Shown here piece after piece: positions 210 to 39,872 of a DNA stretch of 64,000 bases (its first letter is position 1; each line of letters opens with the position of its first letter). Source of the stretch: Patescibacteria group bacterium. GTDB lineage: Bacteria; Patescibacteriota; Microgenomatia; UBA8517. The DNA lies in NCBI GenBank assembly GCA_036835125.1, contig DAITMO010000001.1, positions 319,508 to 383,507 of the forward strand, read 5' to 3'. The position numbers and the translations under genes are program-made. Under the pieces are notes generated by a model. The model ran no database searches. It was given only the letters and a program-made list of their open reading frames with translations, and was not told the DNA's origin.

Positions 210-1304
210 TTAAATATTTTTAAGTAGCTTCAACAATTTTGAGTTTACATATATTCTTTGTCTTGTGTGGATTCCAATATTATTAATTATTTTTTTACTT
301 GTTAACATCTTTAAATATCTTTCACAAGACGAACTTGGAATATTAAGTGCATTGCTCACAATGGCTCTGTTTAGGTATGGTGATTGGTAACTAAATTCCA
401 ACACTCTTAGCAAATTAATATTTGCGTTTTCTTTTTCTATTGTCTTTTTTGATTCATTGAATAAATTATCTATATCAAGGGCAATCTTCATAGAAAGTCT
501 TGCTTGTGTTTCCATTGCTTTTAAGAAATACATAAACCATGAATACCAGTCTTCTTTTGTATCAACTCTCGACAATGCGTTAATGTAGGAAGATTTATTT
601 TTTTCAAAATAACCACTAGGGTAAAGAATTGGGTAAGTTAACAATCTCTGACTTAATAAATACAATGAGATAACCAATCTTCCTGTTCTACCATTCCCAT
701 CTTCGAATGGATGGATGGCTTCTAATCGATGATGGATTATCCCGCAAGCAAGAAGTGGATGAACATCTCCTCTGCTGGCTATAAATTTTTGAAGTTGCCC
801 CATCAAAATTGGCACTTGTGAGGCATCTGGGGGGAGGTATCTAGCCTTTTCTTTTATTGTCCCTTCAGGTCCAATCCAAACATCTCCCTTTCTAAACTCA
901 CCAGGATGTTTACCTTGACCCCTAACACCTTTTAATAATGTTTTGTGAACCTCGCGAATTAATAGCTGCGTAAAACCATATTTTTCAATTATTTCAATAC
1001 CAGCAAACATGGCATTTTCATAATTTTTTATCTCTTGAGCCTCGTTTTTCTTTTCAGGTGTTTGATTTATAATGTCTATTTTATAAACGTCTTCAATTGA
1101 AGCTTGAGTTCCTTCAAGTTGAGAACTCGACTCAGCTTCTTTTGCAAGGATTGGATGCATAAGCAAATTGGGATTTTTAAGCAGTCTAGACATCTGATTT
1201 AAGCCTTCAATTGCACCAGTGGTATTAGCTAATTGATTAGACAAATCCTGATTGTAGATACTATTTAAATCTGGTGGAAAAACAGTTTCTATTAGTTTGT
1301 TCAT
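210..1304 (-). CDS. Fic family protein (putative AMP-transferase), class-II type with N-terminal inhibitory helix and C-terminal wHTH-like tail
   Basis: Canonical Fic motif HPFEDGNGRTGR (HPFx[DE]GNGRxxR). The N-terminal TGAIEG matches the inhibitory (S/T)xxxE(G/N) motif. The 364 aa length is typical of Fic. Confidence 0.85.
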   Translation of the reverse strand: MNKLIETVFPPDLNSIYNQDLSNQLANTTGAIEGLNQMSRLLKNPNLLMHPILAKEAESSSQLEGTQASIEDVYKIDIINQTPEKKNEAQEIKNYENAMFAGIEIIEKYGFTQLLIREVHKTLLKGVRGQGKHPGEFRKGDVWIGPEGTIKEKARYLPPDASQVPILMGQLQKFIASRGDVHPLLACGIIHHRLEAIHPFEDGNGRTGRLVISLYLLSQRLLTYPILYPSGYFEKNKSSYINALSRVDTKEDWYSWFMYFLKAMETQARLSMKIALDIDNLFNESKKTIEKENANINLLRVLEFSYQSPYLNRAIVSNALNIPSSSCERYLKMLTSKKIINNIGIHTRQRIYVNSKLLKLLKNI

Positions 1305-4459: not shown

Positions 4460-5484
4460 AAGCAGGAGTTTTTAATCCATATCTTGATACATTGGGGGGA
4501 GGGGAAAGATACACTCTTTCCTTTGCTAAGGTATTGCAAAACAAGGGATATGAAGTTGATGTTGAGTGGAAGGATGTTGGTATCAAAAAAATTCTTGAAG
4601 AGAGATTTGGAATTGATTTAAAAGAAATAAATATAGTCCCTGATATCAAAAAAGGGGAGGGATATGATCTTTGCTTTTGGGTGTCAGACGGGAGTATCCC
4701 TTTAATGCACGGAAGAAACAATATTCTTCATTTTCAAGTTCCATTTCATAAGGTAAATGGAAAAAGTCTAATGAATAAAATGAAGATGTTTCGAATAAAC
4801 CAGATTGTATGTAATTCAGAGTTTACAAAGAAAGTCATTGATAAAGAGTTTGGAGTAAATAGTGTTGTTGTTTATCCGCCGGTTGATACTGGCAAAATAA
4901 AATCAAAAAGAAAAGAGAACATAATTCTATATGTTGGAAGATTTTCTAAAGTACTTCAAAGTAAGGGGCAGGAGCATTTGGTGGATGCTTTTAAAATTTT
5001 ATGTGACGGAGGAATAAAAGATTGGAAATTAGTTTTGGCTGGGGGAAATGAAGTTGGGGCTGAAAGTTTTATTAAAGAATTGAAAGCTCAATCTGAAGGA
5101 TATCCAATAGAAATAATTGAGAGTCCTGATTATAAAACCTTAGTTGATTTGTATGGAAAATCAAAAATATTTTGGAGTGCTGCTGGATTTGGAAAGGATG
5201 AAAATGTTAGTCCTGAGGTTATGGAACATTTTGGTATAACAGTTGTAGAGGCAATGGCAGGAGGGAATGTCTCAATAATTTATAATGGAGGTGGTTATAA
5301 GGAGATTGTTGAGAATTATACTAATGGCTATCTTTGGAATAGTTTGGATGAGCTGGTTGAAAAAACAAAAGAGATAATAGCAAATCCAAAAAAATTAAAC
5401 GAATTAGCAAGTGCGGCAAAAACATCTGTTCAAAAATATGGCATTAAAACTTTTGAAGAAAAAGTTTTCGAAATTATTAAATAA
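4456..5484 (+). CDS. GT4 (GT-B) glycosyltransferase
   Basis: C-terminal GT4 motif ...FGITVVEAMAGG...GG..EIV plus the ILYVGRFS...KG donor-binding region. ATGA overlap with the upstream gene. Confidence 0.75.
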   Translation: MKAGVFNPYLDTLGGGERYTLSFAKVLQNKGYEVDVEWKDVGIKKILEERFGIDLKEINIVPDIKKGEGYDLCFWVSDGSIPLMHGRNNILHFQVPFHKVNGKSLMNKMKMFRINQIVCNSEFTKKVIDKEFGVNSVVVYPPVDTGKIKSKRKENIILYVGRFSKVLQSKGQEHLVDAFKILCDGGIKDWKLVLAGGNEVGAESFIKELKAQSEGYPIEIIESPDYKTLVDLYGKSKIFWSAAGFGKDENVSPEVMEHFGITVVEAMAGGNVSIIYNGGGYKEIVENYTNGYLWNSLDELVEKTKEIIANPKKLNELASAAKTSVQKYGIKTFEEKVFEIIK

Positions 5485-7825
5485 GATTTGGCCGATTCTT
5501 CTGATATTGTTTTTTGTTGCCGTGTTTTTCTATCCTGTTTTTTTGAAAAAGCAGTTTCCAATACCGGGCGACTTTGTTGCTGGAACATATTTTCCTTGGA
5601 TGGACTATAAATGGGGTTTCCCTGTGAGAGTTCCTGTTAAAAATCCTGTAACTTCAGATGTTGTTTCAATAATTTATCCTTTGAGAACTTATGCAGTAGA
5701 CTTTCTAAAATCTGGACACTTACCACTTTGGAATCCCCTAATGTTTACCGGCACTCCTCTTTTTGCCGATTTTCAGGTTGCACTTTTTTCTCCTACTATT
5801 TTTTTATATTTTTTACTTCCCAAGATATGGGCATGGACGGGACAAATAATTTTACAGCCATTTCTTGCAGCCGTTTTTTGCTATTTTCTTCTTAGGAATT
5901 TTAAATTGGGAAAGATTGCTTCAGTTTTTGGAGGAATTTTTTATGCTTTTAGTTCATTCAATATTATTTGGATGGAATGGAATACCAACACTCTAACAGC
6001 AGCTTTTATTCCTCTTGTTTTTTTGTTTCTTGATAAATTTATTAGCTCCAGTAAAGCTCACTGGGGGATACTTTTTTCGGTGTCAATTTGTATGCAAATT
6101 TTGAGCGGCTACCCGCAACTTGTAATATTTACCCTATTATTTGCAGTAATTTATGTTCTTTTCAAAATTAAGCAATTTAATTTAAAGAAGCTTATTTTAT
6201 TATTTGTATTTATTATCTTGGGCATTGGCCTTTCTTCAGTTTTTTCTGTGCCGGCATCTGAACTTGTACTGAATTCTCAAAGGAAGTTTGAGCTTTTAAG
6301 CAGGGATTTGGTTTATCTTCCATGGAAAAATCTGGTTACAATCTTAGCACCTGATTATTTTGGAAATTCTGCGACCTACAACTACTTTTCTGACGGCAAC
6401 TATACGATTAATACAATTTACTCCGGTATTGTTGTTTTGACTCTGGCGATTATTGGGGTTTCAAAGTGTTTCGGAAGGAAAGAAGTAAAATATTTCACCT
6501 CAGTATTTTTTATTTCTATCATCTTTGCACTACCAACTGTTTTTGGGAAAATACTTTTTAACTCCCATATTCCTGGAATCTCTGCATCATCAAACACAAG
6601 AATATTAGTTTTTGCAAATTTTGCATTAGCAATACTAGCAGGATTTGGAATAACCAAAATTTTGGAAAAGAAAAAGATAAAACTGAAAAGAATGTTTGTG
6701 GCGGCAATTCCTCTTATCTTGCTTATTTTTATATTTATCTTTACCTATTTTTGGGGGATAAATAAAAATGTTTCTATTAGAAATTTGATATTGCCGTTTG
6801 GTTTATCAGGGTTAACGGTTGCGGCACTGATATTCCGGGAAAAAATATATTCATATAGTTTCTTAAAAAAAATCATTGTTGTTTCAGTTTGTGCTTTGGC
6901 AGTTTTTGAGCTTTTCAGATATGGATGGAAATACACTCCATATTCAACTGCTGATTTAATTTTTCCAAACACTCCAATATTGGAATATTTACAAAAAGAC
7001 AAGAGCGTTCACAGGGTTTCCTTGGGAAATACTGTTCCTATGAACATGCTCGTCCCGTACGGAATGGAAACTGTTTCAGGGTATGACGCTTCATATCCTA
7101 TTTGGTGGGCAAGATTTTTATATGCAATTAAAGGGCAAGATCCTGATGAACCGGGATTCAGTTATTATGCAGAATTTGACAGCTACTTCAGTGATTGGTT
7201 TGATATTTTAAATAATAAATATCTATTAGTGTTGGACCCTGAGCAAACCCATGATATTACAAATTCAAATTTGATCTATCAGGTCGAAAAAGATCCAAGG
7301 TTTGAAAAAGTTTTTCAGGACAAGTCAGTGATTGTCTATGAAAATAAGGAAGTATTTCCACGCGCATTCTTTATGAGTGATTGGGAATATGTTCCTGAGA
7401 GTGACACCTTGAAAGTCTTAAAGGATCCCAAGTTTCCTCTTAAAAATAAAATCACAATAGATAAGTATATTGATTTGGAAAAGAGTAAAAACACAAAGGC
7501 AATCATCTCTTATAAAGAGTATTCTCCAGAAAGAAACGTTATAGAAGTTAGTTCAACTGGAAATGGATTCTTGGTTGTAACGGATTCCTGGTATCCGGGG
7601 TGGAAAGTAAAAGTTGATGGGATTGATTCTCAAATATATAGAGCAGATTACATCTTTAAGTCGGTTCCTATTGGCAATGGGAATCATGTAATTGAGTTTT
7701 ACTATGAACCACTGTCTTTAAAGATTGGGAAGATCATAACTTTGGCATCTGGATTTATTTTATTGCTTGTTATATTGCTTCACAGAACGGTTGAAAGATT
7801 AATCATTGTGAGAAAGCGGGACTAG
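5438..7825 (+). CDS. YfhO-like polytopic membrane glycosyltransferase (GT-C fold)
   Basis: About 795 aa with many predicted TM helices. The C-terminal soluble domain has WYPGWKVKVDG...YRADYIFKSV characteristic of the YfhO family. Start is uncertain: ATG at 5438 is preferred (positively charged N-terminus before the first TM helix), the ORF-track GTG is at 5411, and either overlaps the upstream gene. Confidence 0.6.
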   Translation: MALKLLKKKFSKLLNKIWPILLILFFVAVFFYPVFLKKQFPIPGDFVAGTYFPWMDYKWGFPVRVPVKNPVTSDVVSIIYPLRTYAVDFLKSGHLPLWNPLMFTGTPLFADFQVALFSPTIFLYFLLPKIWAWTGQIILQPFLAAVFCYFLLRNFKLGKIASVFGGIFYAFSSFNIIWMEWNTNTLTAAFIPLVFLFLDKFISSSKAHWGILFSVSICMQILSGYPQLVIFTLLFAVIYVLFKIKQFNLKKLILLFVFIILGIGLSSVFSVPASELVLNSQRKFELLSRDLVYLPWKNLVTILAPDYFGNSATYNYFSDGNYTINTIYSGIVVLTLAIIGVSKCFGRKEVKYFTSVFFISIIFALPTVFGKILFNSHIPGISASSNTRILVFANFALAILAGFGITKILEKKKIKLKRMFVAAIPLILLIFIFIFTYFWGINKNVSIRNLILPFGLSGLTVAALIFREKIYSYSFLKKIIVVSVCALAVFELFRYGWKYTPYSTADLIFPNTPILEYLQKDKSVHRVSLGNTVPMNMLVPYGMETVSGYDASYPIWWARFLYAIKGQDPDEPGFSYYAEFDSYFSDWFDILNNKYLLVLDPEQTHDITNSNLIYQVEKDPRFEKVFQDKSVIVYENKEVFPRAFFMSDWEYVPESDTLKVLKDPKFPLKNKITIDKYIDLEKSKNTKAIISYKEYSPERNVIEVSSTGNGFLVVTDSWYPGWKVKVDGIDSQIYRADYIFKSVPIGNGNHVIEFYYEPLSLKIGKIITLASGFILLLVILLHRTVERLIIVRKRD

Positions 7826-8758: not shown

Positions 8759-9589
8759 ATGGGCATAACGCTATCTATCGTAATAGTTAATTTAAATACT
8801 AAGGATCTGACAGTGGGATGCATCAGGTCAATTGAGAAATGGGCAAAAGATTTATCTTTTGAAGTTCTTTTGACAGACAATGGCAGTAATGATGGTTCAG
8901 TTGAGGCTTTCAAGGGAATCAAAAAAGAGAAATATTGGAAAGATAGATTCACATTAATACTAAATGATAGTAATACTGGCTATGCAAAAGCGAATAATCA
9001 GGGAATTAAGAAAGCAAAGGGAAAATACATACTTCTTTTGAATAATGACACAGTTGTTCACAAGGATGCACTTCAAAAACTTGTAGAGTTTGCTGATATT
9101 ACACCTGATGCTGGTGTAGTTGGGAGCCGCCTTCTTAATATTGATGACACACTTCAAATGTCTTGCTATCACTTTCCTACAATTACGAACGCAATAAAGG
9201 AATATTGGTTTGGCAAGAAAGGACTGTTTGAAAAATTTGCTCCAAAGGGAGACACTCCTATCACAGTAGACTCTGTTGTTGGTGCAGCATTTCTTATAAC
9301 TCCCGAAGCAAAAAAGAAAGTTGGAATATTGGACGAGAGGTATTTTGCATATTTTGAGGATATAGACTACTGCAGGCAGACTTGGAAACAGGGGCTAAAA
9401 GTCTATTATCTTCCAGACTCTGTAATAACTCACTATCATGGGGCAACATTTAAAAAGTTGGCTAATGAGGCTGAGCGTTGGAAAAGGCTTATTCCTTCAA
9501 GCAAAGTCTATCACGGACTTTTTAAACACTATTTTATAAACGCTATTTTATGGTTAGGACAAAAAAAGAATAAGCTGTTACAAAAATAG
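8759..9589 (+). CDS. GT2 glycosyltransferase
   Basis: LSIVIVNLN...LLTDNGSNDGS...NTGYAKANNQGI...LLLNNDTVV is a GT-A signature. It is a paralog of 7850..8746. Confidence 0.8.
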   Translation: MGITLSIVIVNLNTKDLTVGCIRSIEKWAKDLSFEVLLTDNGSNDGSVEAFKGIKKEKYWKDRFTLILNDSNTGYAKANNQGIKKAKGKYILLLNNDTVVHKDALQKLVEFADITPDAGVVGSRLLNIDDTLQMSCYHFPTITNAIKEYWFGKKGLFEKFAPKGDTPITVDSVVGAAFLITPEAKKKVGILDERYFAYFEDIDYCRQTWKQGLKVYYLPDSVITHYHGATFKKLANEAERWKRLIPSSKVYHGLFKHYFINAILWLGQKKNKLLQK

Positions 9590-13858: not shown

Positions 13859-15352
13859 ATGAAGACAGATGGAGTCGAGCCAGGTTTGGATTCTACAGAC
13901 GAGATAAGTCTCGAGACTGTTAAGGCAAGAAGCATCAAAGGGGTTGTTGCTCTAACTGGAAGATATTTTGTTCTCTATGCAATTACCCTTGTTTCCCAGG
14001 GAATCTTGGGGGCACTTCTCACAACATCCCAATTTGGTATTTTTGGAGTAGTTTCTGCAATTGTTAACTTCTTAGTTTATTTTTCTGATATAGGGCTTGC
14101 TGCAGCATTAATTCAAAAGAAGGAGAAGATTGAAGCAGAAGACTTAAAAACTACTTTTACAGTTCAACAGATATTAGTTGCTGTTCTTCTTATTGGTACT
14201 TTTATGTTATCCCCCTGGATTAAAAGATTCTACGGACTTGATCAGAGTGCAATTTTTCTTCTTTATGCTTTGGGTGTTTCATTTTTGTTGTCTTCTTTAA
14301 AAACTATTCCTTCAGTTCTTTTGGAAAGGGGACTTAAATTTGAAAAACTTGCAATATCAAACATATTAGAGAGCATTGCATATAATATTTGTTTGGTTTT
14401 CTTTGCTTGGAAGGGTTTTGGAATAACAAGTTTTACAATAGCAGTATTGGTGCGGGGTGTTGTAGGGCTTGTTGTTCTTTATTTCTTCCAGCCATGGAAG
14501 CCTGCTTTGGCACTGTCTCGGAAATCTCTTTCAAAACTTCTTAAGTTTGGAATTCCATATCAGATAAATACTTTCATTGCGGTTCTTAAGGATGATGGAT
14601 TGACTTTGGTTCTTGGAAAAGTTATGGGTGTGTCAGCTCTTGGTATTTTAGTTTGGGCTCAGAAGTGGATACAAATTCCTTTAAGGGTCGTAATGGATAA
14701 TGTTACAAGGGTAATGTTTCCTGCTTTTTCCAGGATGCAGGATGATACAGAGAATTTAAAAAGAAGCGTTACCCGCTCAATTTTTTTTACAACAGTTTTG
14801 GTTTTTCCGGCAACCGTTGCAATAGTCCTCCTTTTTCCTGTTGTTACTAATATCATTCCGAAATATCAGCAGTGGTTACCCGCAATTCTTCCTTTAACAC
14901 TTCTATCTATTAATGTTCTATTTGCAGCGATTACTACACAGCTTACAAACCTTCTTAATGCAATTGGGAAAATTAAGATTACTTCAGCTCTTATGGTAAT
15001 GTGGACGGTCCTAACGTGGGTATTGGTCCCATATTTGGCAAAGAGGTTTGGTGCAACAGGCGCAGCAGCGGGTTATGCAGCCGTGGGAGCTTCATCCATA
15101 ATTGCAATATTTATTGTTAAAAAATATGTAAACTTCTCTCTAATTGATGGAGCCCTTAAACCCTTCTTTGCTTCTATTGTGATGGGGGTGACACTTTTGG
15201 TTTTAAGGCATTTCTTACCACAAAACCTAGCTTCTCTTGGAATATTGATTGTTATTGGCTTGACTACCTATGCTCTTTCTATCCTTGCCTTGGTTGGCGC
15301 CTCTTTAGTTGAAGATGTTAAAAAAGGACTTTCTGCAATCGTTAAAAAATAA
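13859..15352 (+). CDS. Wzx-like oligo/polysaccharide flippase (PST/MOP superfamily)
   Basis: About 497 aa and 12-14 TM helices. The overall pattern is typical of PST-family polysaccharide biosynthesis (Wzx) proteins. A good RBS (AAGGT) is present. Confidence 0.65.
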   Translation: MKTDGVEPGLDSTDEISLETVKARSIKGVVALTGRYFVLYAITLVSQGILGALLTTSQFGIFGVVSAIVNFLVYFSDIGLAAALIQKKEKIEAEDLKTTFTVQQILVAVLLIGTFMLSPWIKRFYGLDQSAIFLLYALGVSFLLSSLKTIPSVLLERGLKFEKLAISNILESIAYNICLVFFAWKGFGITSFTIAVLVRGVVGLVVLYFFQPWKPALALSRKSLSKLLKFGIPYQINTFIAVLKDDGLTLVLGKVMGVSALGILVWAQKWIQIPLRVVMDNVTRVMFPAFSRMQDDTENLKRSVTRSIFFTTVLVFPATVAIVLLFPVVTNIIPKYQQWLPAILPLTLLSINVLFAAITTQLTNLLNAIGKIKITSALMVMWTVLTWVLVPYLAKRFGATGAAAGYAAVGASSIIAIFIVKKYVNFSLIDGALKPFFASIVMGVTLLVLRHFLPQNLASLGILIVIGLTTYALSILALVGASLVEDVKKGLSAIVKK

Positions 15353-17075: not shown

Positions 17076-18773
17076 ATGAAGAAACTTACTACATTATTTA
17101 AGAAAAAATGGGTTTGGGTTATACTGGTTATTGCTGCAACAATCCCCACTTTTACAAGTTTAATGAGACCAGGGTTTTTCCCGATGCAGGATGATCTTCA
17201 GGCTTTCAGAATTTACGAAATGGATAAATGCTTTTCCGATTTTCAAATTCCATGCCGTTGGGTACCTGATGCAGGATATAAGTATGGATATCCACAATTC
17301 AATTATTATCCTCCCAGTGTTTATTATCTCGGGGAGGCATTTCATAAACTAGGATTCCAATTTATAGATTCGGTAAAAATTGTTTTTGCATTAGGATACA
17401 TTCTATCTGCCTTAACAATGTTTCTTCTTGTGAGTGAAATATTTGGTAATTTCCCGGGATTTGTTTCAGGGGTTATTTATACATACGTTCCATATAAAGC
17501 AATGGAAGTTTATGTCAGGGGGGCTATGAGTGAGTTCTGGTCACTTGTTTTTTATCCTTTGATTTTTTGGGCAGTTTATAAACTTATTAAAACATTAAAG
17601 AAAAAGTATATTGCTGTGTTGGGAATATCCTTGGCGCTTCTTTTAACAACACACCTTCTTATGTCAATGATTTTTTCTTTGTCTGCAGTTGTATGGACCA
17701 TCTATTGGTTGGTCAAAGAGAAAAAGGTGAAAGAAATTGGTAAGGTGATTGCTGGGGTAATTCTTGGAATATGTTTGGCTGCATTCTTTGTACTGCCGGT
17801 TATATTTGAACAAAAATATGCCCATACGGAGACAATGACAATGGGATATTTTGGATATCTTCAGCATTTTGTAAATGTCTATAAAATGTTCTTATCCAGA
17901 GAATGGGGATTTGGTTCATCTGGTTTTCCAAATGAAGTATTAAATCTTTCAACTGGAATAATCCAGTGGATTTTTGGACTTATTACAGTCGGATTGGCAG
18001 GAATTCTTTTTATCAAGAGAAAAAAGAAAGAATATCTTTTCCTTACTTTGATACTGGGAGGACTGGAAATATTTACTCTTTTCATGATGCATGCAAAATC
18101 AACTTTTATTTGGAAATTGATACCAATTCTTGCTTGGCTGCAATTTCCCTGGAGATTTCTTACTGTTAGTATTTTCCTTTTGGCAATCTTGGCTGGTATC
18201 GGAATTTATTTAATTCCAAAGTTTAAAGTGTGGATTGGGATCATTGTTATGGTAATAGCAGTAGCACTTACAGGTTCATACTTCACTCCCAAAAGCTGGC
18301 TAGATATTAGCGATACCGATCATTTTTCGGGTGTGTCATGGCAGAAGAAATTAACTATTAGTATTTTTGATTATTTACCTATATATGCAAAACTTCCGCC
18401 AATTACAGAAGCACCAGACGTGCCAGAAGTATTAGATGGCATGGCAGTATTTATGGATTATAAAAAAGGAAGTAATTATCAGGTTGGAGATATTATTGCT
18501 CACGAAGACTCCACAATACGCCTGCCTCTTTTTGATTTCCCTGGAATGAAAGTTTTTGCAAATGGAGAAGTTATTGATCATTACAACAATGACTGCAGGG
18601 GTCAGGAGTTTTGTCTTGGTTTAATTACATTTAAATTGCCTGCTGGAACTTATCACCTGGAAACAAGGCTAACAGATACTCCAATTAGAGTTGTTGGTAA
18701 CTATTTATCTTTGTTTGGAGTAGTTACCGTGTGTTATCTTTTAATAAAGAAAGATGAAAAGAATTCTAAATAA
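17076..18773 (+). CDS. YfhO-like/PTPS-related polytopic membrane protein (GT-C-like), tandem paralog 1 of 3
   Basis: Conserved N-terminal block QDDLQAFRIYEMDKCFSDFQIPCRWVPDAGYKYGYPQFNYYPP and C-terminal beta-rich block (FDFPGMKVFANGEV). The protein is about 560 aa with many TM helices. Confidence 0.55.
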   Translation: MKKLTTLFKKKWVWVILVIAATIPTFTSLMRPGFFPMQDDLQAFRIYEMDKCFSDFQIPCRWVPDAGYKYGYPQFNYYPPSVYYLGEAFHKLGFQFIDSVKIVFALGYILSALTMFLLVSEIFGNFPGFVSGVIYTYVPYKAMEVYVRGAMSEFWSLVFYPLIFWAVYKLIKTLKKKYIAVLGISLALLLTTHLLMSMIFSLSAVVWTIYWLVKEKKVKEIGKVIAGVILGICLAAFFVLPVIFEQKYAHTETMTMGYFGYLQHFVNVYKMFLSREWGFGSSGFPNEVLNLSTGIIQWIFGLITVGLAGILFIKRKKKEYLFLTLILGGLEIFTLFMMHAKSTFIWKLIPILAWLQFPWRFLTVSIFLLAILAGIGIYLIPKFKVWIGIIVMVIAVALTGSYFTPKSWLDISDTDHFSGVSWQKKLTISIFDYLPIYAKLPPITEAPDVPEVLDGMAVFMDYKKGSNYQVGDIIAHEDSTIRLPLFDFPGMKVFANGEVIDHYNNDCRGQEFCLGLITFKLPAGTYHLETRLTDTPIRVVGNYLSLFGVVTVCYLLIKKDEKNSK

Positions 18774-20430
18774 ATATTGGCCTTTAATACTTGTATTTGC
18801 TTTAAGCTTCTTTGTTACATGGCCGCTTTTTAAGTATGGATATTTTTCTCACCAAGATAATTTGCAAGTTATTCGCATCTTTGAAATGAAAAAGTGTTTT
18901 TCTGATCTGCAGATTCCATGCCGCTGGGTTCCTGATATGGGGTGGGGAAACGGATTTCCACTGTTTAATTTTTATGGTGTCTCTCTTTATTATTTGGGTG
19001 CTTTATTTAGTTATATAGTAGGCTATATTGTGTCTTCAAAAATTATTTTCTTTTTGTCCCTGGTTTTGGGGAGCTTTGGAATATACCTATTGGCAAAAAG
19101 TCTTTGGGGAAAATATGCAGGTATGGCTTCAGCGATTCTATACATGTTTGCTCCCTATAAAGCATTGGATATCTATGTCAGGGGGGCGCTTGCAGAAAGC
19201 TTTGCCTTGGCTATCATTCCTTTTGTTTTTTACTTTGGCTACAAACTTATTGTTTCCCCAAAAAACAACAAGAAACAGAACAACAAATACGGGATATTGT
19301 TCTCGCTATCTTTATTTGTTTTTATGATAACCCACAATATTATGGTTTTGATATTTATTCCAATATTGGGACTTTGGATGCTTTATTGGTTGTATGTTGA
19401 GAAGTGGAAAAATATTAAAAATGTAGTTTTATATGTATTGTTTGGAATCGGAATGTCGTGCTTTTTTATACTTCCTGCATTTCTTGAGAAGGGGCTTGTA
19501 CAAACAGAATCTTTGCTCCGGTTTGAATTGGATTTCAGGGCTAACTACTTAAGAATTTATCAGTTGTTTTTTGACCGCGTCTGGGGTTATGGAACTTCTA
19601 TTCCGGGACCGGAAGGGGGAATGAACTTTCAAATTGGCTGGCCGCACTGGCTACTGGGACTAACTTCATTGGTGTTTATTTTTAATAAAAAAGTTACCAA
19701 AAAGATGAAAGTATTAATCTTGGGAATTATTGGAGCGTTTCTTTTCTCTATATTTATGACCCACAACAAATCTACATTTATTTGGGTTAATATTAGTCTT
19801 TTAAAGTATTTCCAGTTTCCCTGGAGGTTTTTATCCCTTTCGATATTTGCCGCCTCCCTTCTCGGAGGCTTCATAGTTTCAAACTTCAGGAGTAGGTGGC
19901 AGCTTTATCTTTCTGTTGTTGTTGTACTTCTATCTGTTTTGTTAAATTGGCAGTATTTTAAGCCTAAAGAATTCTACTCTATTAAAGACAGTGAACTACT
20001 TTCTGATGCATCATGGGATGAACAAAGGAAGGGAGCGCTTCTTGATTATCTGCCTAAAACTGCCTTGGAACCAAGAGAGGAAGCGCCAGTAGAGCCATTA
20101 ATAGTTTCTGGAAATGCAAAGACAGAGAGCTTTGTGAATAATTCCAACAAATGGAAATTGGACATTGAAGTTACCGAAAGTTCGGTCATTGAAGTACCTG
20201 TTTTTTATTTCCCAAATTGGCGGGTATATGTTGACGGGAATAAATATCCTTTTACCTATGACAACATCTTGGGAAGAATTTCGTTTACTTTGGAGCCTGG
20301 TAGGTATTCTATTGATGGAAAGTTTGAGAATACACCGGTAAGAACACTGGGAAACACCCTGTCGCTTATAAGTATCATTGGGCTTGCTGTTTATACAATT
20401 TATGGAAAAAATAAGAAAATATCTAAATAA
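18754..20430 (+). CDS. YfhO-like/PTPS-related polytopic membrane protein (GT-C-like), tandem paralog 2 of 3
   Basis: HQDNLQVIRIFEMKKCFSDLQIPCRWVPDMGWGNGFPLFNFY and C-terminal YFPNWRVYVDGNKYPF are homologous blocks to 17076. The start overlaps the upstream gene by 20 nt. Confidence 0.55.
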   Translation: MKRILNKYWPLILVFALSFFVTWPLFKYGYFSHQDNLQVIRIFEMKKCFSDLQIPCRWVPDMGWGNGFPLFNFYGVSLYYLGALFSYIVGYIVSSKIIFFLSLVLGSFGIYLLAKSLWGKYAGMASAILYMFAPYKALDIYVRGALAESFALAIIPFVFYFGYKLIVSPKNNKKQNNKYGILFSLSLFVFMITHNIMVLIFIPILGLWMLYWLYVEKWKNIKNVVLYVLFGIGMSCFFILPAFLEKGLVQTESLLRFELDFRANYLRIYQLFFDRVWGYGTSIPGPEGGMNFQIGWPHWLLGLTSLVFIFNKKVTKKMKVLILGIIGAFLFSIFMTHNKSTFIWVNISLLKYFQFPWRFLSLSIFAASLLGGFIVSNFRSRWQLYLSVVVVLLSVLLNWQYFKPKEFYSIKDSELLSDASWDEQRKGALLDYLPKTALEPREEAPVEPLIVSGNAKTESFVNNSNKWKLDIEVTESSVIEVPVFYFPNWRVYVDGNKYPFTYDNILGRISFTLEPGRYSIDGKFENTPVRTLGNTLSLISIIGLAVYTIYGKNKKISK

Positions 20431-22069
20431 ATACATATTTTTAATAATTCTTTTGCTGGCGATACCGGCAGTGCGGTATCTATTTGTTTATGGTTTTTTT
20501 GGAGTCTCGGATGATCTTCATATTGGCTGGCTTTATGAAATGGATAGGGTTATTAAGATGCTTCAACTTCCTCCAAGATATGTTCCTGATTTAAGTTTTG
20601 GATTTGGATATCCGCTATTCAATTTTGTCTATCCGCTTCCTTTTTATTTTGGTGAGGTATTTCATCTTTTGGGGTTTTCGTTGGTAAACAGCGTAAAAAT
20701 AGTCTTTGGATTGTCAATTCCTCTTTCAATGTTTTTTATGTACAAATTCTTAAAAGAGTTTTTGAATGAAGAGTTTTCACTTGCCGGATCTGTTTTATAC
20801 GTATATATGCCGTATAGGGCAACTGAGCTTTTTGTTAGAGGAACAATTGGGGAGATTGTTGCCTTTGTATTTCTGCCCTTAATTGCATTATCTATTGTCA
20901 ATTTAACAAAAGAGAAAATAGAAAATAAGTGGATTGGAATATTGGCATTATCGGTTGGAGGTTTGATTCTTTCTCACAACATAATGGCATATATGTTTGT
21001 GCCGTTTGTGCTGCTACTTCTAGTTTTGAGAATTGTATTTGTTGTTAAAAACAGAAAGGAATCTATTGTTAAAAGTATTAGTGGTTTAATATTAGGTTTG
21101 ATAGTATCTTCATACTTTTGGTTTCCTGCAATCAGTGAGAGTTTACTTGTGAAGTATGACACGGTATTTAATTTTTATGACCATTTCCCGACGCTTAAGC
21201 AATTCATAACTCCATTCTTTGGTTATGGTGCTTCAGTTCCCGGTCCATATGACACAATGTCTTTTTATGTTGGATTAACCGGGATCTTTGTAGTTGCTGC
21301 CGGGTCCCTTCTTTTTTTAATAAAGTTTAAGAAGTTTTCAAAAACCGAAAAGGTTTATATTACTTGGGGCATTACTATTCTTTTAATTAGTATGTTCATG
21401 ATGAACTTTAGATCTGCATTTCTTTGGAGAAATTTGCCACTTCTTCCTTACTTTCAATTCCCCTGGAGGTTTTTGTCAATGGTTGCTTTTGCTTCCCCAA
21501 TAATCCTACTAGGATTAACTAAAAATAAGTTTGGTAATGCTATTTCATTTGTGGTTCTTTTGACGGCGATTGTTTTAAACTTTAATTATTTTAAGACAAG
21601 TGAGTATTTGGGTAGAGGGGACTATTATTATATTAATAGGTATATACCGGTTCCCATGGCTTCAGAAGAATACAAAAAGACATCTGAGGAATATTTGCGT
21701 CTTCCTCTTGGCACTGAGGAAAGACCGGAATCTAATATGCCGAGGGCATATTCAGAGATACCAGGCATTGTTGAGGTGGTTGAGATAAATCCGCTTGATG
21801 CAAAGATTATTACAGATAGTAATGAGGGTTTCATTTTAAATTACAGCAAGTATTATTTTCCTGGATGGTTGGCTAAAATAGATGGTGAAAATACAGAAAT
21901 TAGTGCTGGAAAACCATATGGTCAGATTACAGTACAGGTTCCATCAGGCAGACACATGGTTGAAATTTTCTATCGTGAGACACCAAAAAGGTTAATATTT
22001 GATGCAATATCACTTGTGGGTATTGGAATATCTGTTTATTATATTTTCAGAAGAGAGAAAGAAAAGTAA
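20402..22069 (+). CDS. YfhO-like/PTPS-related polytopic membrane protein (GT-C-like), tandem paralog 3 of 3
   Basis: SDDLHIGWLYEMDRVIKMLQLPPRYVPDLSFGFGYPLFNFVYP and C-terminal YFPGWLAKIDGENTEI. The ATG at 20402 (MEKIRKYLNKYIF) is chosen by analogy with the N-terminus of paralog 2; the ORF extends to 20378. Confidence 0.5.
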   Translation: MEKIRKYLNKYIFLIILLLAIPAVRYLFVYGFFGVSDDLHIGWLYEMDRVIKMLQLPPRYVPDLSFGFGYPLFNFVYPLPFYFGEVFHLLGFSLVNSVKIVFGLSIPLSMFFMYKFLKEFLNEEFSLAGSVLYVYMPYRATELFVRGTIGEIVAFVFLPLIALSIVNLTKEKIENKWIGILALSVGGLILSHNIMAYMFVPFVLLLLVLRIVFVVKNRKESIVKSISGLILGLIVSSYFWFPAISESLLVKYDTVFNFYDHFPTLKQFITPFFGYGASVPGPYDTMSFYVGLTGIFVVAAGSLLFLIKFKKFSKTEKVYITWGITILLISMFMMNFRSAFLWRNLPLLPYFQFPWRFLSMVAFASPIILLGLTKNKFGNAISFVVLLTAIVLNFNYFKTSEYLGRGDYYYINRYIPVPMASEEYKKTSEEYLRLPLGTEERPESNMPRAYSEIPGIVEVVEINPLDAKIITDSNEGFILNYSKYYFPGWLAKIDGENTEISAGKPYGQITVQVPSGRHMVEIFYRETPKRLIFDAISLVGIGISVYYIFRREKEK

Positions 22070-24536: not shown

Positions 24537-25142
24537 ATGAAAAAAATGATTTGGCTGACAATAGTCTTTGTATTAGGACTGGTGTTTGTTGTTCCGGTTA
24601 TTCTCTCCATGGGTTTAAAAATGATTCCTATTAATACTCAACCTGGATTAAATTATGATGTAAGGCTTTCAATTTATAGAGACAGGTTGTTTCTCCAGAA
24701 ATTTACCGCCAAGGAAGACAATTTGACTGCAATTGGAATGTCTATCAGAAATCCCAATTTGAAAAATAAAGCGGAAATATATTTCAACTTGATGAACTTG
24801 GATGGAAGCATTATACGAAGCGTTGCTATAAGCGGCATGAATCTTGAAGATGGTTCTTTTACCAAGTTTGTTTTTGATCCGATTCCCGATTCATTTGGAA
24901 AGGAATATTTGTTCACCCTATCTTCTCCTGGGGCAGGACCGGAGGAAACAATAGAACTATTTATTATTGGAACTGATGATCCGTCTGGAATAACAGAATA
25001 TTCATACATGGGTGAATCTTTCTCTGGAGGAACTCCGATTGTTCAATATGTAAAGCCGATAAGCAAGGTAAATACAGTTAAAGAAGTTTATACTAATTTG
25101 ATTTCCAGACTTCTGCCGCATCATTCTCAAAAATCTTATTAA
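24537..25142 (+). CDS. hypothetical membrane-anchored extracytoplasmic protein
   Basis: N-terminal signal anchor (IWLTIVFVLGLVFVVPVIL) followed by a roughly 170 aa domain with no recognisable motif. Its 3' end overlaps the convergent gene 25093..26955 by 50 nt. Confidence 0.4.
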   Translation: MKKMIWLTIVFVLGLVFVVPVILSMGLKMIPINTQPGLNYDVRLSIYRDRLFLQKFTAKEDNLTAIGMSIRNPNLKNKAEIYFNLMNLDGSIIRSVAISGMNLEDGSFTKFVFDPIPDSFGKEYLFTLSSPGAGPEETIELFIIGTDDPSGITEYSYMGESFSGGTPIVQYVKPISKVNTVKEVYTNLISRLLPHHSQKSY

Positions 25143-26955
25143 GTCCATATTCTTCTGGAGTGACTGCTGGCGTTAGTTCTTTTGGATAATAAATAATATT
25201 TGCGTGAGTTTCTTCAAATGCTTTTTGGACAGTTTGTGTTTCACTTCCTTCAAAGATGGTCTTTTTAATAGTGTCTCTTTCGCGCCAGCTGTAGCCCATT
25301 ATGTCAGCTTGTTCATAGTCTTCAAAATATGTTCTTCGACTTGAGAAAGCTGCAACATATGAAGTATCAAACCAGTCCCAGATATTTGGTGTGACTTGTT
25401 TTAAATCTAGGTATTGATTGTAGGGTGGTGTAACAATAACAATATCTTTCGTGGTGTTTTTCTTGATATAGTTTAGAGCTCCAAGTTCACCTTCTGAAAT
25501 TCTTGCAAATGCAGGTCTTTTATAGAATTCATAGATAAGCCCTATCTGGGTTGGAATCATGATGGCGATAAGGGTAAGAGCAAATACTATTCGGATCGGG
25601 GTATGTTTTATTTTTGAAAGCAATTTAGAAACAGATATTCCTGCAAGTATTCCAAAGAACAATACAAAATACTGCAGAAACTGGCTGGTGTTGCTGGCAA
25701 CCCCTTTTTGGAGGAACAAAAGCGGTAGAACCAAGGAAATTACGATAGCTGATTTGATAAATACATTTGTCTTTATATATTCTTTAAGACCAATGAATCT
25801 TACTCCAAGATTTCCAAAGAAGAAGATAAGGAGTCCTATTCCCTCATACTCAAGAATTCTTAATATAGATTTAATTCCGCCGCGGTCAAGATAAAATTGA
25901 CGTCTCAACTCAAGGTCTATCCAATCAAGGCGGGAGTTTTCCACTATCATTGTTCGTATATACCACCAGGGTTGGAATATTAAAAATGCTGTAGATCCTG
26001 AAGTATTTGGAATGTAAAGGGCAGCAGCTAATATTCCACTAATGCCAGTGATTATAAGTGTGTCAATTTTCTTTTCTTTAATTAGTTGCCAAAGTCCTGC
26101 AATTCCAAGAGCTCCTAGGGCAACAACTCCTGCATATACTTTAAAGCTTGCCAGGGTGCCAAAAAGGACTACACAGATTACTGAATATATTATTTTTGCC
26201 TTCTTTTCTTTTTGTTCCCTAAATGAAAGATAGAAATAAAGGCCAGTAAGTATTAAGAAGTCTGAGGCAATCTGAGGAGGGTTGCCTGCAGCACTTTGCG
26301 GTTGTGTTGCCCAGAATATGCTTTCTCCTCCTATTGTTTTATTTTTGATAAAAGTGACAATATATCCAAAACTTCCTGCAAAATATGTAAATATTGTTGC
26401 CCAAATAGGTGCATATTGGTTTTTACTCAGTTTTTTAGTTAGATAGTAAGCAGATACTCCCAAGAATAGGGAACCTATAAATGGAAATACTCTGAAGTAC
26501 AGGGTTACATCGGACACTGGAAGATACTTACCAATCATTGCCGGCAGAATATCACTAAAGAAGTGGTAGTTGATGAGCCTTTCTCCAGCAAAGGATGGAT
26601 TTTGGAATGGCCACCCTCGTCTTATCTCGTCCATTAACGCAATGTGCCATGCTCCATCGTGTCCGTTTGCACTCCAGAAAAGCATATCTCCACTCTTTGA
26701 GAATATTCCACTTGGGGAAATGATTGCCATTTGTCCAACAATTCCAAGGATAAAGACAAGAAGTGTTATAGCTGTCCGCTTATTCCATTTGGTGTTTGTC
26801 TTTTCTATTGCTTTTGCAATTGGTTTTCCTGCAAAAAGCATTAGGACAAGAATTGTGGGGACGATTAAGACAGGAATTTTTAAGAGTATGAATATATAGG
26901 AAAGGAGTGTCAGGCAAGAAAAAGCAGCAATTGAGAACATTAGTATTCCTTCCAT
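25093..26955 (-). CDS. polytopic membrane protein, putative GT-C-like (inverted paralog of 15309..17042)
   Basis: SANGHDGAWHIAL...NPSFAGERLINYHFF...GGESIFWATQ blocks are shared with 15309..17042. It is 620 aa with many TM helices and is the only minus-strand gene between 15 kb and 43 kb. Confidence 0.5.
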   Translation of the reverse strand: MEGILMFSIAAFSCLTLLSYIFILLKIPVLIVPTILVLMLFAGKPIAKAIEKTNTKWNKRTAITLLVFILGIVGQMAIISPSGIFSKSGDMLFWSANGHDGAWHIALMDEIRRGWPFQNPSFAGERLINYHFFSDILPAMIGKYLPVSDVTLYFRVFPFIGSLFLGVSAYYLTKKLSKNQYAPIWATIFTYFAGSFGYIVTFIKNKTIGGESIFWATQPQSAAGNPPQIASDFLILTGLYFYLSFREQKEKKAKIIYSVICVVLFGTLASFKVYAGVVALGALGIAGLWQLIKEKKIDTLIITGISGILAAALYIPNTSGSTAFLIFQPWWYIRTMIVENSRLDWIDLELRRQFYLDRGGIKSILRILEYEGIGLLIFFFGNLGVRFIGLKEYIKTNVFIKSAIVISLVLPLLFLQKGVASNTSQFLQYFVLFFGILAGISVSKLLSKIKHTPIRIVFALTLIAIMIPTQIGLIYEFYKRPAFARISEGELGALNYIKKNTTKDIVIVTPPYNQYLDLKQVTPNIWDWFDTSYVAAFSSRRTYFEDYEQADIMGYSWRERDTIKKTIFEGSETQTVQKAFEETHANIIYYPKELTPAVTPEEYGLNKIFENDAAEVWKSN

Positions 26956-26982: not shown

Positions 26983-28398
26983 ATGGGAAAGAAGACGTGG
27001 CTGATTCTGCTTGGAATTGTTCTTTTGGGGTTGGTTATCAGACTTATTAAAATTGGATCTCTTCCTCTTTACGGTGATGAGCTGACAATGGTATATGACA
27101 CCTACTCAATCAGCAAAACTGGAATGGATGCTACTGGAGAAAAGCTTCCTTTAACCTTTAAGATGGGAGCGGGTCGTCCTGGTGGATACATTTATTTTTC
27201 TGTTCCTTTTGTTGCCGCCTTTGGTCCTAATGTTTGGGGGGAGAGATCTCTGTCTCTTCTTTCGGGGGTTGGAATAATTATCCTCATATATTTCCTGGGA
27301 AAGAAATTGTTTGGTGAAAAGGTCGGGTTAACTGCAAGCATTCTTACTGCAATTTCTCCATGGGATATTTATTTAAGCAGGGGAGGATTTGAAGCACATT
27401 TTGCGCTGTTTCTGGCTCTTTTTGGGATAACAATGTTTTTTTACAGGAGATATATTTTTTGGGCAATTTTCTGGGGATTAGCACTTTTTACTTATCCGAC
27501 TTTCAAGTTAACTCTACCTATTATTTTTGTACTTTTAACTTTAGTACAGGGAGTCGCAAAATCATTAAAAGACAAAAAGTATATTGCAGGAACTTTACTT
27601 CTTTTGGTTTTTGGAGGAATTATCGCTACTCAAACTTTTACTGCGGGAAGCGAAGATAGATTTCTTTCCCAGAATGTTCTATCTGATGAAAAAACCAAAA
27701 ACAATCTGATTCAGGTGGTGAGTACAGAAAGAAATACCTCTATTCTTCCAAGTTTCTTAAAACCAGTTTTTATAAATAGAAAAATAGAATATGGAAAGAT
27801 TATACTTGATAATTATGTGGCCAATATCTCCCCACAGTTTCTCTTTTTGAGGGGGGACGGGAATCCCAGACATAATCCTGGAGAAATGGGAATGCTCTAT
27901 TTGGCAGAACTACCAATACTTTTAGTCTCCATTTTTCTTTTATGGAAGGAAGACAAGAAGAAGTTCACTATTCTTTTTGGTTGGATTTTGATAGTACCTC
28001 TTGCAACAATGTTAATGGGACAAACTCATGCTTTAAGAAATGGCTTTATGCTTCCTCCTTTAATTCTTTTGACTGCTTTTACACTTTCAAAGATGTCTAA
28101 AAAATATGTTAAGTTATTTGGTATTCTTGTTGGAATTCAGTTGGTTTATATTTTAGTGCGTCTTTATACAGTTGTTCCTGCTAAATTTGCAGACTTCTGG
28201 TCAGCTCCTGCAAAAGAGGCAGCTCTTATTGCAATAGAGGAGAGTAAGAATGGACAAAAAGTTACTTTGGATGTTACAAAAATAGACAATATTGAATATG
28301 CATATGAGGTATATGCAAAGGTTGACCCAAAAGAAGTTATTACCCAGAGCGGTAGTTTCCCCAAAGTTTATGGCAATGTCACAATCACTGATAAATAA
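26983..28398 (+). CDS. GT39/PMT_2 (ArnT-like) membrane glycosyltransferase
   Basis: DE loop motif LPLYGDELTMVYDTYSISKTG...LPLTF, polytopic, C-terminal soluble domain. Confidence 0.6.
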   Translation: MGKKTWLILLGIVLLGLVIRLIKIGSLPLYGDELTMVYDTYSISKTGMDATGEKLPLTFKMGAGRPGGYIYFSVPFVAAFGPNVWGERSLSLLSGVGIIILIYFLGKKLFGEKVGLTASILTAISPWDIYLSRGGFEAHFALFLALFGITMFFYRRYIFWAIFWGLALFTYPTFKLTLPIIFVLLTLVQGVAKSLKDKKYIAGTLLLLVFGGIIATQTFTAGSEDRFLSQNVLSDEKTKNNLIQVVSTERNTSILPSFLKPVFINRKIEYGKIILDNYVANISPQFLFLRGDGNPRHNPGEMGMLYLAELPILLVSIFLLWKEDKKKFTILFGWILIVPLATMLMGQTHALRNGFMLPPLILLTAFTLSKMSKKYVKLFGILVGIQLVYILVRLYTVVPAKFADFWSAPAKEAALIAIEESKNGQKVTLDVTKIDNIEYAYEVYAKVDPKEVITQSGSFPKVYGNVTITDK

Positions 28399-28408
28399 AT
28401 TCAAAGTC

Positions 28409-29878: not shown

Positions 29879-29897
29879 AGCTGGTAACATTTAGTAT

Positions 29898-37100: not shown

Positions 37101-39208
<2,108 letters not shown>

Positions 39209-39209
<1 letters not shown>

Positions 39210-39865
39210 TGAATATAACAATAGTTGTCCCTTTCTATAACGAGAAAAAACATATAAAAGAAGTGGTTGATGGTCTTTCTTCTTACAGGCTTCCTGTTGT
39301 TGTGGTGGATGATGGGAGTAGTGATTCCTATGCATTAAAAAACAGTCCGAAAGTTACTCTTTTGAAGCACAAGATAAATTTGGGAAAGGGAGCTGCAATG
39401 AAAACTGGAACAGATTTTGCATTTAGTAACGGCGCAGATGCAGTTATCTTTATGGATGGAGATAATCAGCATAAGCCTGAGGATATTAAGAAATTTATTG
39501 AAGTTCTTCAAACCGGTAAGTACGATGCTGTGTTTGGAGCAAGGAACTTCAATTACAGTGTTCCCTTAATTAGGTATATGGGCAATAAAGTTGTTTCCAT
39601 GCTTCTTAGAATTCTTTTTGGAATATACGTATCTGACGTTCTTTGTGGATTTAAGGCGTTGACAAAGAAAGCGTATAAAGCGGTTTATTGGGAATCTACT
39701 GGGTATGGAGTTGAGACTGAAATGATTGCAAGGTTTGGTAAAAATAAACTGACATACAAAGAAGTTTCAATAGAAGCGATTTACCACGATAAAGTTAAGG
39801 GTGTCACAGTTTTGGATGCGTTTGGTATAATGGGACAGATAGTTAAGTGGAAGCTAACAATCTAG
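39209..39865 (+). CDS. GT2 polyprenyl-phosphate sugar synthase (DPM1/GtrB-like)
   Basis: ITIVVPFYNEKKHI...VVVVDDGSSD...GKGAAMKTG...IFMDGDNQHKPEDI is a DPM1-like GT2. It is short (218 aa) and single-domain. Confidence 0.7.
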
Positions 39866-39872
39866 AAATAAA

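Follow-up and report, generated by a model that had tools for sequence, protein, structure and literature searches.

An ordered array of three paralogous genes for predicted GT-C-fold membrane proteins in a glycan-synthesis island of an uncultured Microgenomates bacterium

The DNA analyzed here is a stretch of 64,000 nucleotides from a Patescibacteria group bacterium (assembly GCA_036835125.1, contig DAITMO010000001.1, positions 319,508 to 383,507), referred to below as the window. It comes from an uncultured Microgenomates organism of the candidate phyla radiation and is almost entirely occupied by a glycan-synthesis island on one strand. Three consecutive genes of this island, termed g1, g2 and g3, encode membrane proteins of about 560 amino acids, and comparison with related genomes shows that the trio is an inherited operon and not a local triplication in this genome. 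With a probability of roughly 55%, the three products are non-redundant, co-translated GT-C transferases that act outside the membrane to elaborate a single surface glycan, using lipid-phosphate sugar donors. What we infer in that reading is that the proteins are active glycosyltransferases, that their donors are lipid-phosphate sugars, that they act one after another on one glycan, that their translation is coupled, and that they associate physically.

All three open reading frames (ORFs) lie on the plus strand at the positions first assigned to them (Table 1), and public gene predictions made independently on identical contigs start at the same positions. An alternative TTG start of g3 at 20378 would give 563 amino acids, with 8 extra residues for which the paralogues offer no equivalent; the ATG at 20402 is preferred because both the paralogue alignment and the public gene calls favor it. 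The sequence blocks that a preliminary description of this DNA had reported as common to the three proteins are present in each of them. In g1, g2 and g3, respectively, they read MQDDL, HQDNL and VSDDL; EMDK, EMKK and EMDR; and GYPQFNYY, GFPLFNFY and GYPLFNFV in the N-terminal part, and FPGMKVFANGE, FPNWRVYVDGN and FPGWLAKIDGE in the C-terminal part. The motif QIPCRWVPD occurs as quoted in g1 and g2 and as the variant QLPPRYVPD in g3. The resemblance extends well beyond low-complexity transmembrane (TM) segments: BLASTP alignments are colinear from end to end for g1-g2 (E 1e-110), g1-g3 (E 2e-66) and g2-g3 (E 2e-66), at the identities given in Table 1. Because these alignments cover more than the hydrophobic segments, the similarity is true paralogy, and the three genes are homologous over their entire length, with g3 the most divergent copy. 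At the nucleotide level, the copies have no long repeats in common: apart from the physical overlaps of the genes, blastn aligned only short stretches around conserved motifs (54 nt at 81% and 36 nt at 86%). Recent duplication and gene conversion are thereby ruled out.

The age of the array was assessed from related genomes. Relatives of the trio were located at 453 loci in contigs representing one genome per species, and the counts reported here rest on the best 80 of these loci; long ORFs were assigned by BLAST and by a neighbor-joining tree of 220 family members. The tree contains three clades, corresponding to g1, g2 and g3 (bootstrap 63, 72 and 77), and the g2 orthogroup has 59 members in it. 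The order g1-g2-g3 is found in 50 of 79 related loci of Woese-, Davies- and Shapirobacteria and is never permuted. According to the tree, 41 loci have g1-g2-g3, 9 have g1-g2-g3 with a fourth copy, 11 have g1-g3, 8 have g1-g2, 4 have g1-g3 with a fourth copy, and g1 stands alone in 5. One-to-one orthologues are 45-72% identical to the proteins of the window, compared with 29-37% between paralogues. Since orthologues are closer than paralogues and the order is never permuted, the duplications predate the split of Woese-, Davies- and Shapirobacteria. The ancient duplication proposed in the preliminary description is thus strongly supported and was, if anything, understated, with one-to-one orthologues in fixed order across three lineages. 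Homologues of g1 number in the thousands and come from sources named Microgenomates, Woesebacteria or Patescibacteria, and g2 and g3 each have an orthologue series of their own with identities of up to 70-80%. An exhaustive profile search of the family gave 20,148 clusters (50% identity) at E <= 1e-3; with the cut-off at E <= 1e-30, 6,931 remained. The variable copy number, with genomes carrying g1-g3, g1-g2 or g1-g2-g3-g4, fits separable steps. Many of the related metagenome-assembled genome records (L001, L003, L006, L007, L013 and others) bear the title "uncultured Gammaproteobacteria bacterium" or "Pseudomonadales", in one case "Clostridia"; the taxonomy given there looks wrong or like a placeholder, as the loci are of Microgenomates type at 45-70% identity.

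Each copy is under purifying selection, with a ratio of nonsynonymous to synonymous substitution rates (dN/dS) of about 0.1, the values of omega for the trio lying at about 0.09-0.16. This ratio was computed between orthologues by the Nei-Gojobori method, as synonymous sites are saturated between paralogues at 29-37% protein identity. For the closest orthologue pair, L006 and L070, which is the sole unsaturated one (dS 0.14-0.24), dN/dS was 0.09, 0.11 and 0.13 for g1, g2 and g3; more distant pairs gave 0.09-0.20 with saturated dS. Simple redundancy of the trio is unlikely, because long-term purifying selection acts on each orthogroup.

The putative catalytic residues are kept throughout. Among 147 sequences of the three orthogroups, D39 (numbering of g1) is present in 147 and D40 in 144, and R61, K101, R148, E153, H193, E245, W346 and Q356-F-P-W-R360 are present in all 147, so that no copy of the trio looks dead. 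Across the orthogroups 52 positions are universal, and 39 of these are extracytoplasmic, an enrichment outside the membrane. Positions that separate the copies were defined as those at least 90% conserved within each orthogroup and different between orthogroups. There are 33 such group-specific positions, and 28 of them fall in segments predicted to be extracytoplasmic, or 52% of the protein (binomial p = 7e-5). Twelve of the 33 lie in the first extracytoplasmic loop (EL1; 11.5% of the protein; p = 2e-4), by the catalytic-type Asp, and others lie in a beta-sandwich domain, at positions 416-450, 516 and 532. A Cys52/Cys60 pair in EL1 is found only in g1 and g2, being absent from g3, and only in g1 does the beta-sandwich carry an insertion of six residues, two of them cysteines. 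This pattern is what would be expected if a shared catalytic core faces outside and its entrance has diverged, and it speaks indirectly for different specificities. The sub-functionalization proposed earlier gains indirect support from the kept catalytic residues, the purifying selection and the mainly external group-specific sites.

Both junctions of the trio consist of the stop/start overlaps reported before (Table 1), and these overlaps are inherited along with the gene array. Of 58 orthologous g1/g2 junctions, 16 overlap by 20 nt and most others by 14-32 nt; of 50 orthologous g2/g3 junctions, 28 overlap by 29 nt and 6 by 22 nt. The two junctions are homologous, because the DNA string TCTAAATAAATA occurs in both and in each the upstream TAA falls in the Asn-Lys codons of (I)LNKY(W); the 9-nt difference between the overlaps corresponds to three extra residues at the N-terminus of g3. 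The overlap DNA codes for the Lys-rich cytoplasmic tails of both proteins. Homologous junctions suggested that g2 might be a chimera produced by unequal crossing-over, and this candidate was set aside, the group-specific site patterns showing no switch between its N- and C-terminal parts. The trio is probably a co-transcribed and translationally coupled unit; of the coupling claimed in the preliminary description, the overlaps and their conservation across genomes stand as observations and the coupling itself is deduced from them. The lack of Shine-Dalgarno sequences was dismissed as evidence for coupling, as most genes of the window have none and 4-nt overlaps are common. Such 4-nt overlaps (ATGA) are very frequent between adjacent genes of the window, and longer ones of 16-29 nt are found chiefly where genes for membrane glycosyltransferases adjoin (3716, 11126, 18754, 20402).

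The assignment to YfhO-like/PTPS-related GT-C proteins was borne out by Pfam scores, profile comparison and predicted structure. PTPS_related (PF10131), a member of the Pfam GT-C clan (CL0111), matches g1 with 36.4 bits and g2 with 30.8 bits (gathering threshold 26.4). The g3 of the window has no PF10131 match at E <= 0.01 and only sub-threshold matches to PMT_2 (24.9 bits) and DUF6541 (15.8 bits), and many g3 orthologues carry precomputed PF10131 matches. Neither an NCBIfam model for any of the three nor a match to Pfam YfhO (PF09586; threshold 28.5 bits) at E <= 0.01 was found. Some database records name trio homologues "glycosyltransferase family 39 protein"; the thresholds of GT39/PMT families are not reached, with PMT_2 (PF13231; 26.1 bits) scoring 19.8 for g1, 24.9 for g3 and nothing for g2, and PMT (PF02366; 22.7 bits) matching none of the three. 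The name "PTPS-related" is a historical misnomer, because no 6-pyruvoyl-tetrahydropterin synthase domain is present in the trio in the Pfam and NCBIfam scans; the whole length of g1 is accounted for by a membrane core and a beta-sandwich.

The trio is predicted to adopt the GT-C fold. An AlphaFold2 model of g1, built from the alignment of the 147 g1, g2 and g3 orthologues (A2), has a mean predicted local distance difference test (pLDDT) score of 93.1 and a predicted template modeling (pTM) score of 0.93. It contains 12 membrane-length helices with both termini in the cytoplasm, and Lys/Arg account for 18 of the 36 residues of the predicted cytoplasmic loops versus 4 of the 34 in the short outside loops. 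EL1 is long (residues ~31-95) and carries D39-D40 directly after the first TM helix, a DD motif described as the active site of GT-C proteins (PMC7801869); the extracytoplasmic beta-sandwich (residues ~403-535) is inserted before the last TM helix. In a Foldseek search of the PDB with the g1 model, all 11 matches at E <= 1e-3 are GT-C proteins (AglB, AftD, STT3, AftA), as are all 38 meaningful matches, which include EmbA/B/C, ArnT, PglB, Pmt4, ALG9/12 and DPY19. The best match is AglB (E 7.5e-6), and the GT-C matches have 9-14% identity and template modeling scores (TM-scores) of 0.37-0.46. A PDB sequence search with the 147-sequence family profile returned nothing meaningful (best E = 2, sortases). 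The beta-domain modeled in isolation reached a pLDDT of 74, with 83-95 in its core. We do not identify it as a carbohydrate-binding module, as no match reached E <= 1e-3; the weak top matches are mostly accessory beta-sandwiches of glycoside hydrolases.

The trio is best described, on profile evidence, as a shorter sister lineage of YfhO outside the YfhO Pfam family. The YfhO-family gene of the window ends in SWYPGWKVKVDG, the Y.PGW...VDG-type motif noted earlier. The likeness is backed by profile matches of the trio C-terminal domain to its residues 716-789 (E 8e-8) and of the trio membrane core to its residues 116-430 (E 2e-7), and by a full-length hhalign comparison at 99.7% probability (E 6e-26), in which the Wzx flippase used as negative control gave 0.1%. 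Each combines a polytopic GT-C core with a beta-rich domain outside the membrane that precedes the last TM helix, and the two have the Y-x-P-G-W...D-G motif in common. The trio differs from YfhO in length (~560 versus ~800+ amino acids), in scoring below the YfhO Pfam threshold and belonging to PF10131, and in being an ordered set of three paralogues. YfhO is reported to add GlcNAc to lipoteichoic acid in B. subtilis and S. aureus and to wall teichoic acid in L. monocytogenes; in this type of system a GT-A enzyme makes the C55-P-sugar, a flippase exports it, and a GT-C transfers the sugar outside (PMC8035078), and the same logic would be expected for the trio.

Members of the array are also found fused in nature. 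In seven loci (L014, L016, L018, L020, L023, L040, L079), a full-length GT2 orthologous to that of the window is joined in frame to the N-terminus of g1 in ORFs of ~790-830 amino acids that end near locus position 11640. Their N-terminal 270 residues share 47-58% identity with the GT2 of the window (8759-9589), and similar GT2-g1-like proteins of ~810-830 amino acids are common in databases (P0054, P0363, P0369 and others). Such a chain would place catalytic domains on either side of the membrane. A g2-g3 fusion in L021 (11658-14942) is a 1,094-amino-acid ORF, or a protein of 1,093 amino acids, with the 12-residue linker RKRVEKINIDKR; an assembly accident can be dismissed, because its cluster holds three distinct 1,093-amino-acid sequences, which come from NCBI, Logan and ENA assemblies. 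Head-to-tail fusions of GT-C units were recorded in L021 and in database proteins (P0361, P0510, P0511, P0362, P0386, P0368, P0415, P0491), and besides g2-g3 they include a two-unit protein from a high-GC organism, a protein of 1,670 amino acids with at least two full units, and g1-like units joined to PMT_2-like domains. A chain of 3,329 amino acids that combines units of YfhO, PTPS_related and PMT_2 type is known from one high-GC contig and may result from faulty gene calling. Head-to-tail fusion is topologically possible because the helix number is even and both termini are inside. The fused enzymes would share a common pathway and probably work side by side.

A scheme consistent with these observations can be proposed. 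A lipid-linked glycan would be built by the cytoplasmic GT2 and GT4 enzymes of the island and exported by the Wzx-type flippase, and polyprenyl-phosphate-monosaccharide donors would be supplied by a GacI/GacJ-like pair. On the outer face, each GT-C would use the Asp-Asp of EL1 to move a sugar from its donor onto the same growing glycan, the linkage or acceptor of each enzyme being set by its group-specific residues in EL1 and the beta-sandwich. The overlapping stop/start junctions would keep the trio made together, and the fused versions suggest side-by-side placement in the membrane. The Wzx flippase, the many GT2 and GT4 genes and the PpgS-like GT2 with its DUF2304 partner match the multi-component transmembrane glycosylation scheme reviewed in PMC8035078. 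The donor synthase may be the candidate GacI/GacJ-like pair at 39209-40205, a PpgS/AglJ/DPM-like GT2 directly followed by a DUF2304 protein (Table 1), by analogy with GacJ, a DUF2304 protein that stimulates GacI, and with the GacI/GacJ and PpgS/Rv3632 pairs, which make polyprenyl-phosphate sugars (bioRxiv 10.1101/180810). The GT2 at 8759-9589 was also considered for this role and rejected, as it looks like a generic rhamnosyltransferase-type enzyme and the PpgS/AglJ-like one is at 39209-39865.

Several points weigh against this scheme. The only paper found on PF10131 lists the family as "function unknown" (PMC7801869), no member with demonstrated activity was found in the literature, and the literature on PF10131 and on Microgenomates with GT-C contained neither a functional study nor an account of the trio array. 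A role of the beta-domain in acceptor binding is a guess, and a structure search with this domain gave no match at E <= 1e-3 (best E 0.013). The candidate donor-synthase pair lies 17 kb from the trio in an island with ~15 other GT-C genes. Overlapping genes are common throughout the window, so that the junctions are not special evidence of regulation, and most genes of the window have no recognizable Shine-Dalgarno sequence in the 20 nt upstream. The bootstrap values of the tree are moderate. The presence of g2, g3 or g4 showed no association with neighboring genes beyond phylogeny. The fusions, finally, support a stable complex equally well.

Such a complex is the content of one alternative, in which the trio forms an obligate hetero-oligomer, a single membrane assembly like EmbA-EmbB or Pmt1-Pmt2 that functions only when all parts are together; coupling would then enforce equal stoichiometry, and differences in specificity would be secondary. 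The arrangement is compatible with serial action and is possible, if on balance improbable. The fixed gene order with conserved long overlaps speaks for it, as do the in-frame g2-g3 fusion with its short basic cytoplasmic linker in independent assemblies, the two- and multi-unit fusions of other lineages, and an N-in/C-in topology that permits head-to-tail association; paralogue heterodimers also occur among the structural neighbors (EmbA-EmbB, 7bvc, PMC7305291; Pmt1-Pmt2, 6p25). However, among loci with enough flanking sequence g2 is absent in 13 of 58 and g3 in 5 of 58, and some loci have a fourth copy, so that no universal three-way stoichiometry exists. All three proteins have the full set of catalytic-type residues and none looks like a pure scaffold, and fusions are rare, a handful among the 6,931 strong family clusters. 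An extended form, in which two to four paralogues make up a hetero-oligomeric GT-C "assembly line" joined to the cytoplasmic GT2 and couple the inner- and outer-face steps of a Microgenomates-specific glycan, is unlikely; the overlaps would then set the stoichiometry, and the GT2-g1 and g2-g3 proteins and the multi-unit chains (up to 3,329 amino acids) would be frozen snapshots of the complex.

The paralogues might also act in parallel, each decorating a different acceptor (wall polymers, lipids or proteins) and clustered only for shared donors and regulation. Known YfhO/PMT_2-type GT-Cs do serve distinct polymers in one organism, the Firmicutes YfhO, GtlB and CsdB/D/F acting on lipoteichoic acid, wall teichoic acid and rhamnan (PMC8035078), and the group-specific beta-sandwich residues could recognize different acceptors; the modular copy number agrees with this as well. 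We regard it as distinctly unlikely: the strict order, the overlaps and the fusions between copies are easier to explain with one substrate, and separate acceptor pathways could not be tied to individual copies by neighbor-gene association. Very improbable is the alternative that the three do not use lipid-monophosphate sugars at all and are another kind of GT-C-like envelope enzyme, such as an oligosaccharyltransferase or polysaccharide transferase, a ligase for lipid-diphosphate glycans, or a polymerase. The best Foldseek matches are oligosaccharyltransferases (AglB, E 7.5e-6; STT3; PglB), a Wzx flippase normally exports repeat units linked to lipid diphosphate, and no recognizable Wzy or ligase was found in the island by Pfam and NCBIfam family scans of the window. 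Yet TM-scores to the oligosaccharyltransferases are no better than those to AftD, ArnT and ALG enzymes (0.37-0.46), and three ligases in a row would be unusual. A WWDXG-type oligosaccharyltransferase motif did not turn up, no search having been aimed at it, and the studied members of the closest sequence relative, YfhO, use C55-P-sugars (PMC8035078).

Serial or combined action of related GT-Cs on one glycan has precedents. The closest in gene arrangement is the embC-embA-embB cluster of mycobacteria (GT53), which, like the trio, consists of three adjacent paralogous GT-C genes on one strand. Each of the three Emb proteins is catalytic; their roles in building one class of wall glycan differ, and they work outside the membrane with a polyprenyl-phosphate sugar (PMC7305291); EmbA and EmbB form a heterodimer and EmbC a homodimer (PMC7305291; PDB titles). 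In contrast to the trio, Emb proteins have ~1,100 amino acids with large periplasmic carbohydrate-binding domains, belong to another family and are confined to Actinobacteria, and the trio has overlapping genes and a copy number of 2-4. The Foldseek relation between Emb and g1 is at the level of fold only (~10% identity, TM-score 0.34-0.38, E 1e-3 to 5e-2), and the Arabinose_trans Pfam model has no match in the trio, which stands outside the Emb/GT53 family. The GacI/GacJ/GacK/GacL system resembles the island in that each type of component is present (a GT2 with DUF2304 partner, a Wzx-type flippase and GT-C); the known systems have one GT-A and one GT-C, whereas here there are about 15-18 GT-C-like genes per island. 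In eukaryotes, the related GT-Cs ALG3, ALG9 and ALG12, and likewise PIG-M/V/B/Z, are reported to act serially on one lipid-linked glycan with a linkage of their own each (PMC13503287). ALG9 and ALG12 are among the structural matches of g1, but the ALG and PIG genes are dispersed and belong to GT22, GT58, GT50 and GT76, and a sequence-level relation to the trio was not detected.

Bacteria of the candidate phyla radiation, Microgenomates among them, have not been cultured; their genomes are tiny, and they presumably live attached to other cells. Surface display is therefore central to their biology. The genes g1-g2-g3 are among the most widely conserved parts of the glycan island and form a natural experiment, with a common catalytic core and 33 candidate positions for specificity; the natural fusions might ease expression or structure solution. 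The trio genes are already public under uninformative names, and there are known examples both of operons of GT-C paralogues (embCAB) and of GT-C enzymes acting in series (ALG3/9/12). The arrangement can fairly be called an ordinary variation on known bacterial surface-glycan machinery, well conserved and experimentally tractable. If the three do work in series or as a complex, the logic of embCAB and ALG3/9/12 would extend to a deep bacterial lineage; if not, the analysis yields a correct annotation of an ordinary, crowded surface-glycan locus.

Table 1. Coordinates of the trio, its junctions and other features of the window
Feature	Position	Strand	Remarks
YfhO-family GT-C	5411..7825	+	Pfam YfhO 69 bits; distantly related to the trio over the full length, C-terminal beta-domain and terminal TM helix included
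Cytoplasmic GT2, rhamnosyltransferase-like	8759..9589	+	Pfam, NCBIfam
Wzx/MOP-type flippase	13859..15352	+	Pfam Polysacc_synt_3 192.7 bits; NCBIfam MOP flippase; in 56/80 related loci
Polytopic membrane protein, 577 aa	15309..17042	+	No Pfam match; in 52/80 related loci
g1	17076..18773	+	ORF; 565 aa; PTPS_related (PF10131) family, predicted GT-C-fold membrane protein; orthologues in 80/80 related loci
g1/g2 junction	18754..18773	+	20-nt out-of-frame overlap; g1 stop TAA inside Asn-Lys codons of g2 motif LNKYW
g2	18754..20430	+	ORF; 558 aa; g1 paralogue, 37% identity; PF10131 match
g2/g3 junction	20402..20430	+	29-nt out-of-frame overlap; g2 stop inside Asn-Lys codons of g3 motif YLNKY
g3	20402..22069	+	555 aa from ATG 20402; 30% identity to g1, 29% to g2
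Large polytopic membrane protein	25093..26955	-	No Pfam match; in 28/80 related loci
PpgS/AglJ/DPM-like GT2	39209..39865	+	NCBIfam AglJ 100 bits, PpgS 92 bits, both below cut-offs
DUF2304 membrane protein, 110 aa	39873..40205	+	DUF2304 68.5 bits (cut-off 25.5)

The island holds several GT2 and GT4 enzymes, the YfhO gene, the Wzx/MOP flippase and sugar-modifying enzymes. Its GT-C-like genes total about 15-18 and include ten of PMT_2 type, eight of them above the Pfam threshold and two (46337 and 50138) weak or near-threshold, as well as two GT87-like genes and one PIG-V-like gene. Conserved around the array in related genomes are the PMT_2 gene at 9601 (58 of 80 loci), Wzx (56) and the gene at 15309 (52). 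The proteins encoded at 15309 and 25093 flank the trio and are paralogues (31% identity over 545 amino acids, E 1.5e-76). On hhalign comparison the former matches the trio profile at 84% (E 8e-7), and it is probably another GT-C, perhaps of a further unrecognized GT-C-like family.

Paralogue sets number at least five in the window. Besides the trio they comprise at least four others of ~30% identity: 15309/25093, 22076/23323, 26983/29898/31556/32908 and 46337/50138. A second and larger tandem array of five consecutive PMT_2-type GT-C genes occupies 26983-34506, in which 26983, 29898, 31556 and 32908 are clear paralogues (26-32% identity). Further adjacent pairs are 9601/11126 (PMT_2) and 22076/23323 (GT87-like, 30%).

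Between ~44000 and 58000, a second glycan cluster of lower GC content (0.28-0.32 versus ~0.35) finds hardly any equivalent in the 80 related loci and may be a variable or acquired, serotype-like region. Its genes encode a cytidylyltransferase, a DegT aminotransferase, a polysialyltransferase-like protein (57329), methyltransferases, an acetyltransferase and an EpsG-like protein (47667), and it also holds the paralogous weak PMT_2-like genes 46337 and 50138. A RhuM/Fic gene on the opposite strand (44317-45294) precedes this cluster, and a Fic/DOC-family gene with a Fic_N domain (210-1304, minus strand) marks the left edge of the island. Two minus-strand ORFs without support, 20098-20436 (112 amino acids, antisense to g2) and 38430-39038 (202 amino acids, antisense to an epimerase gene), are probably chance ORFs in AT-rich sequence.

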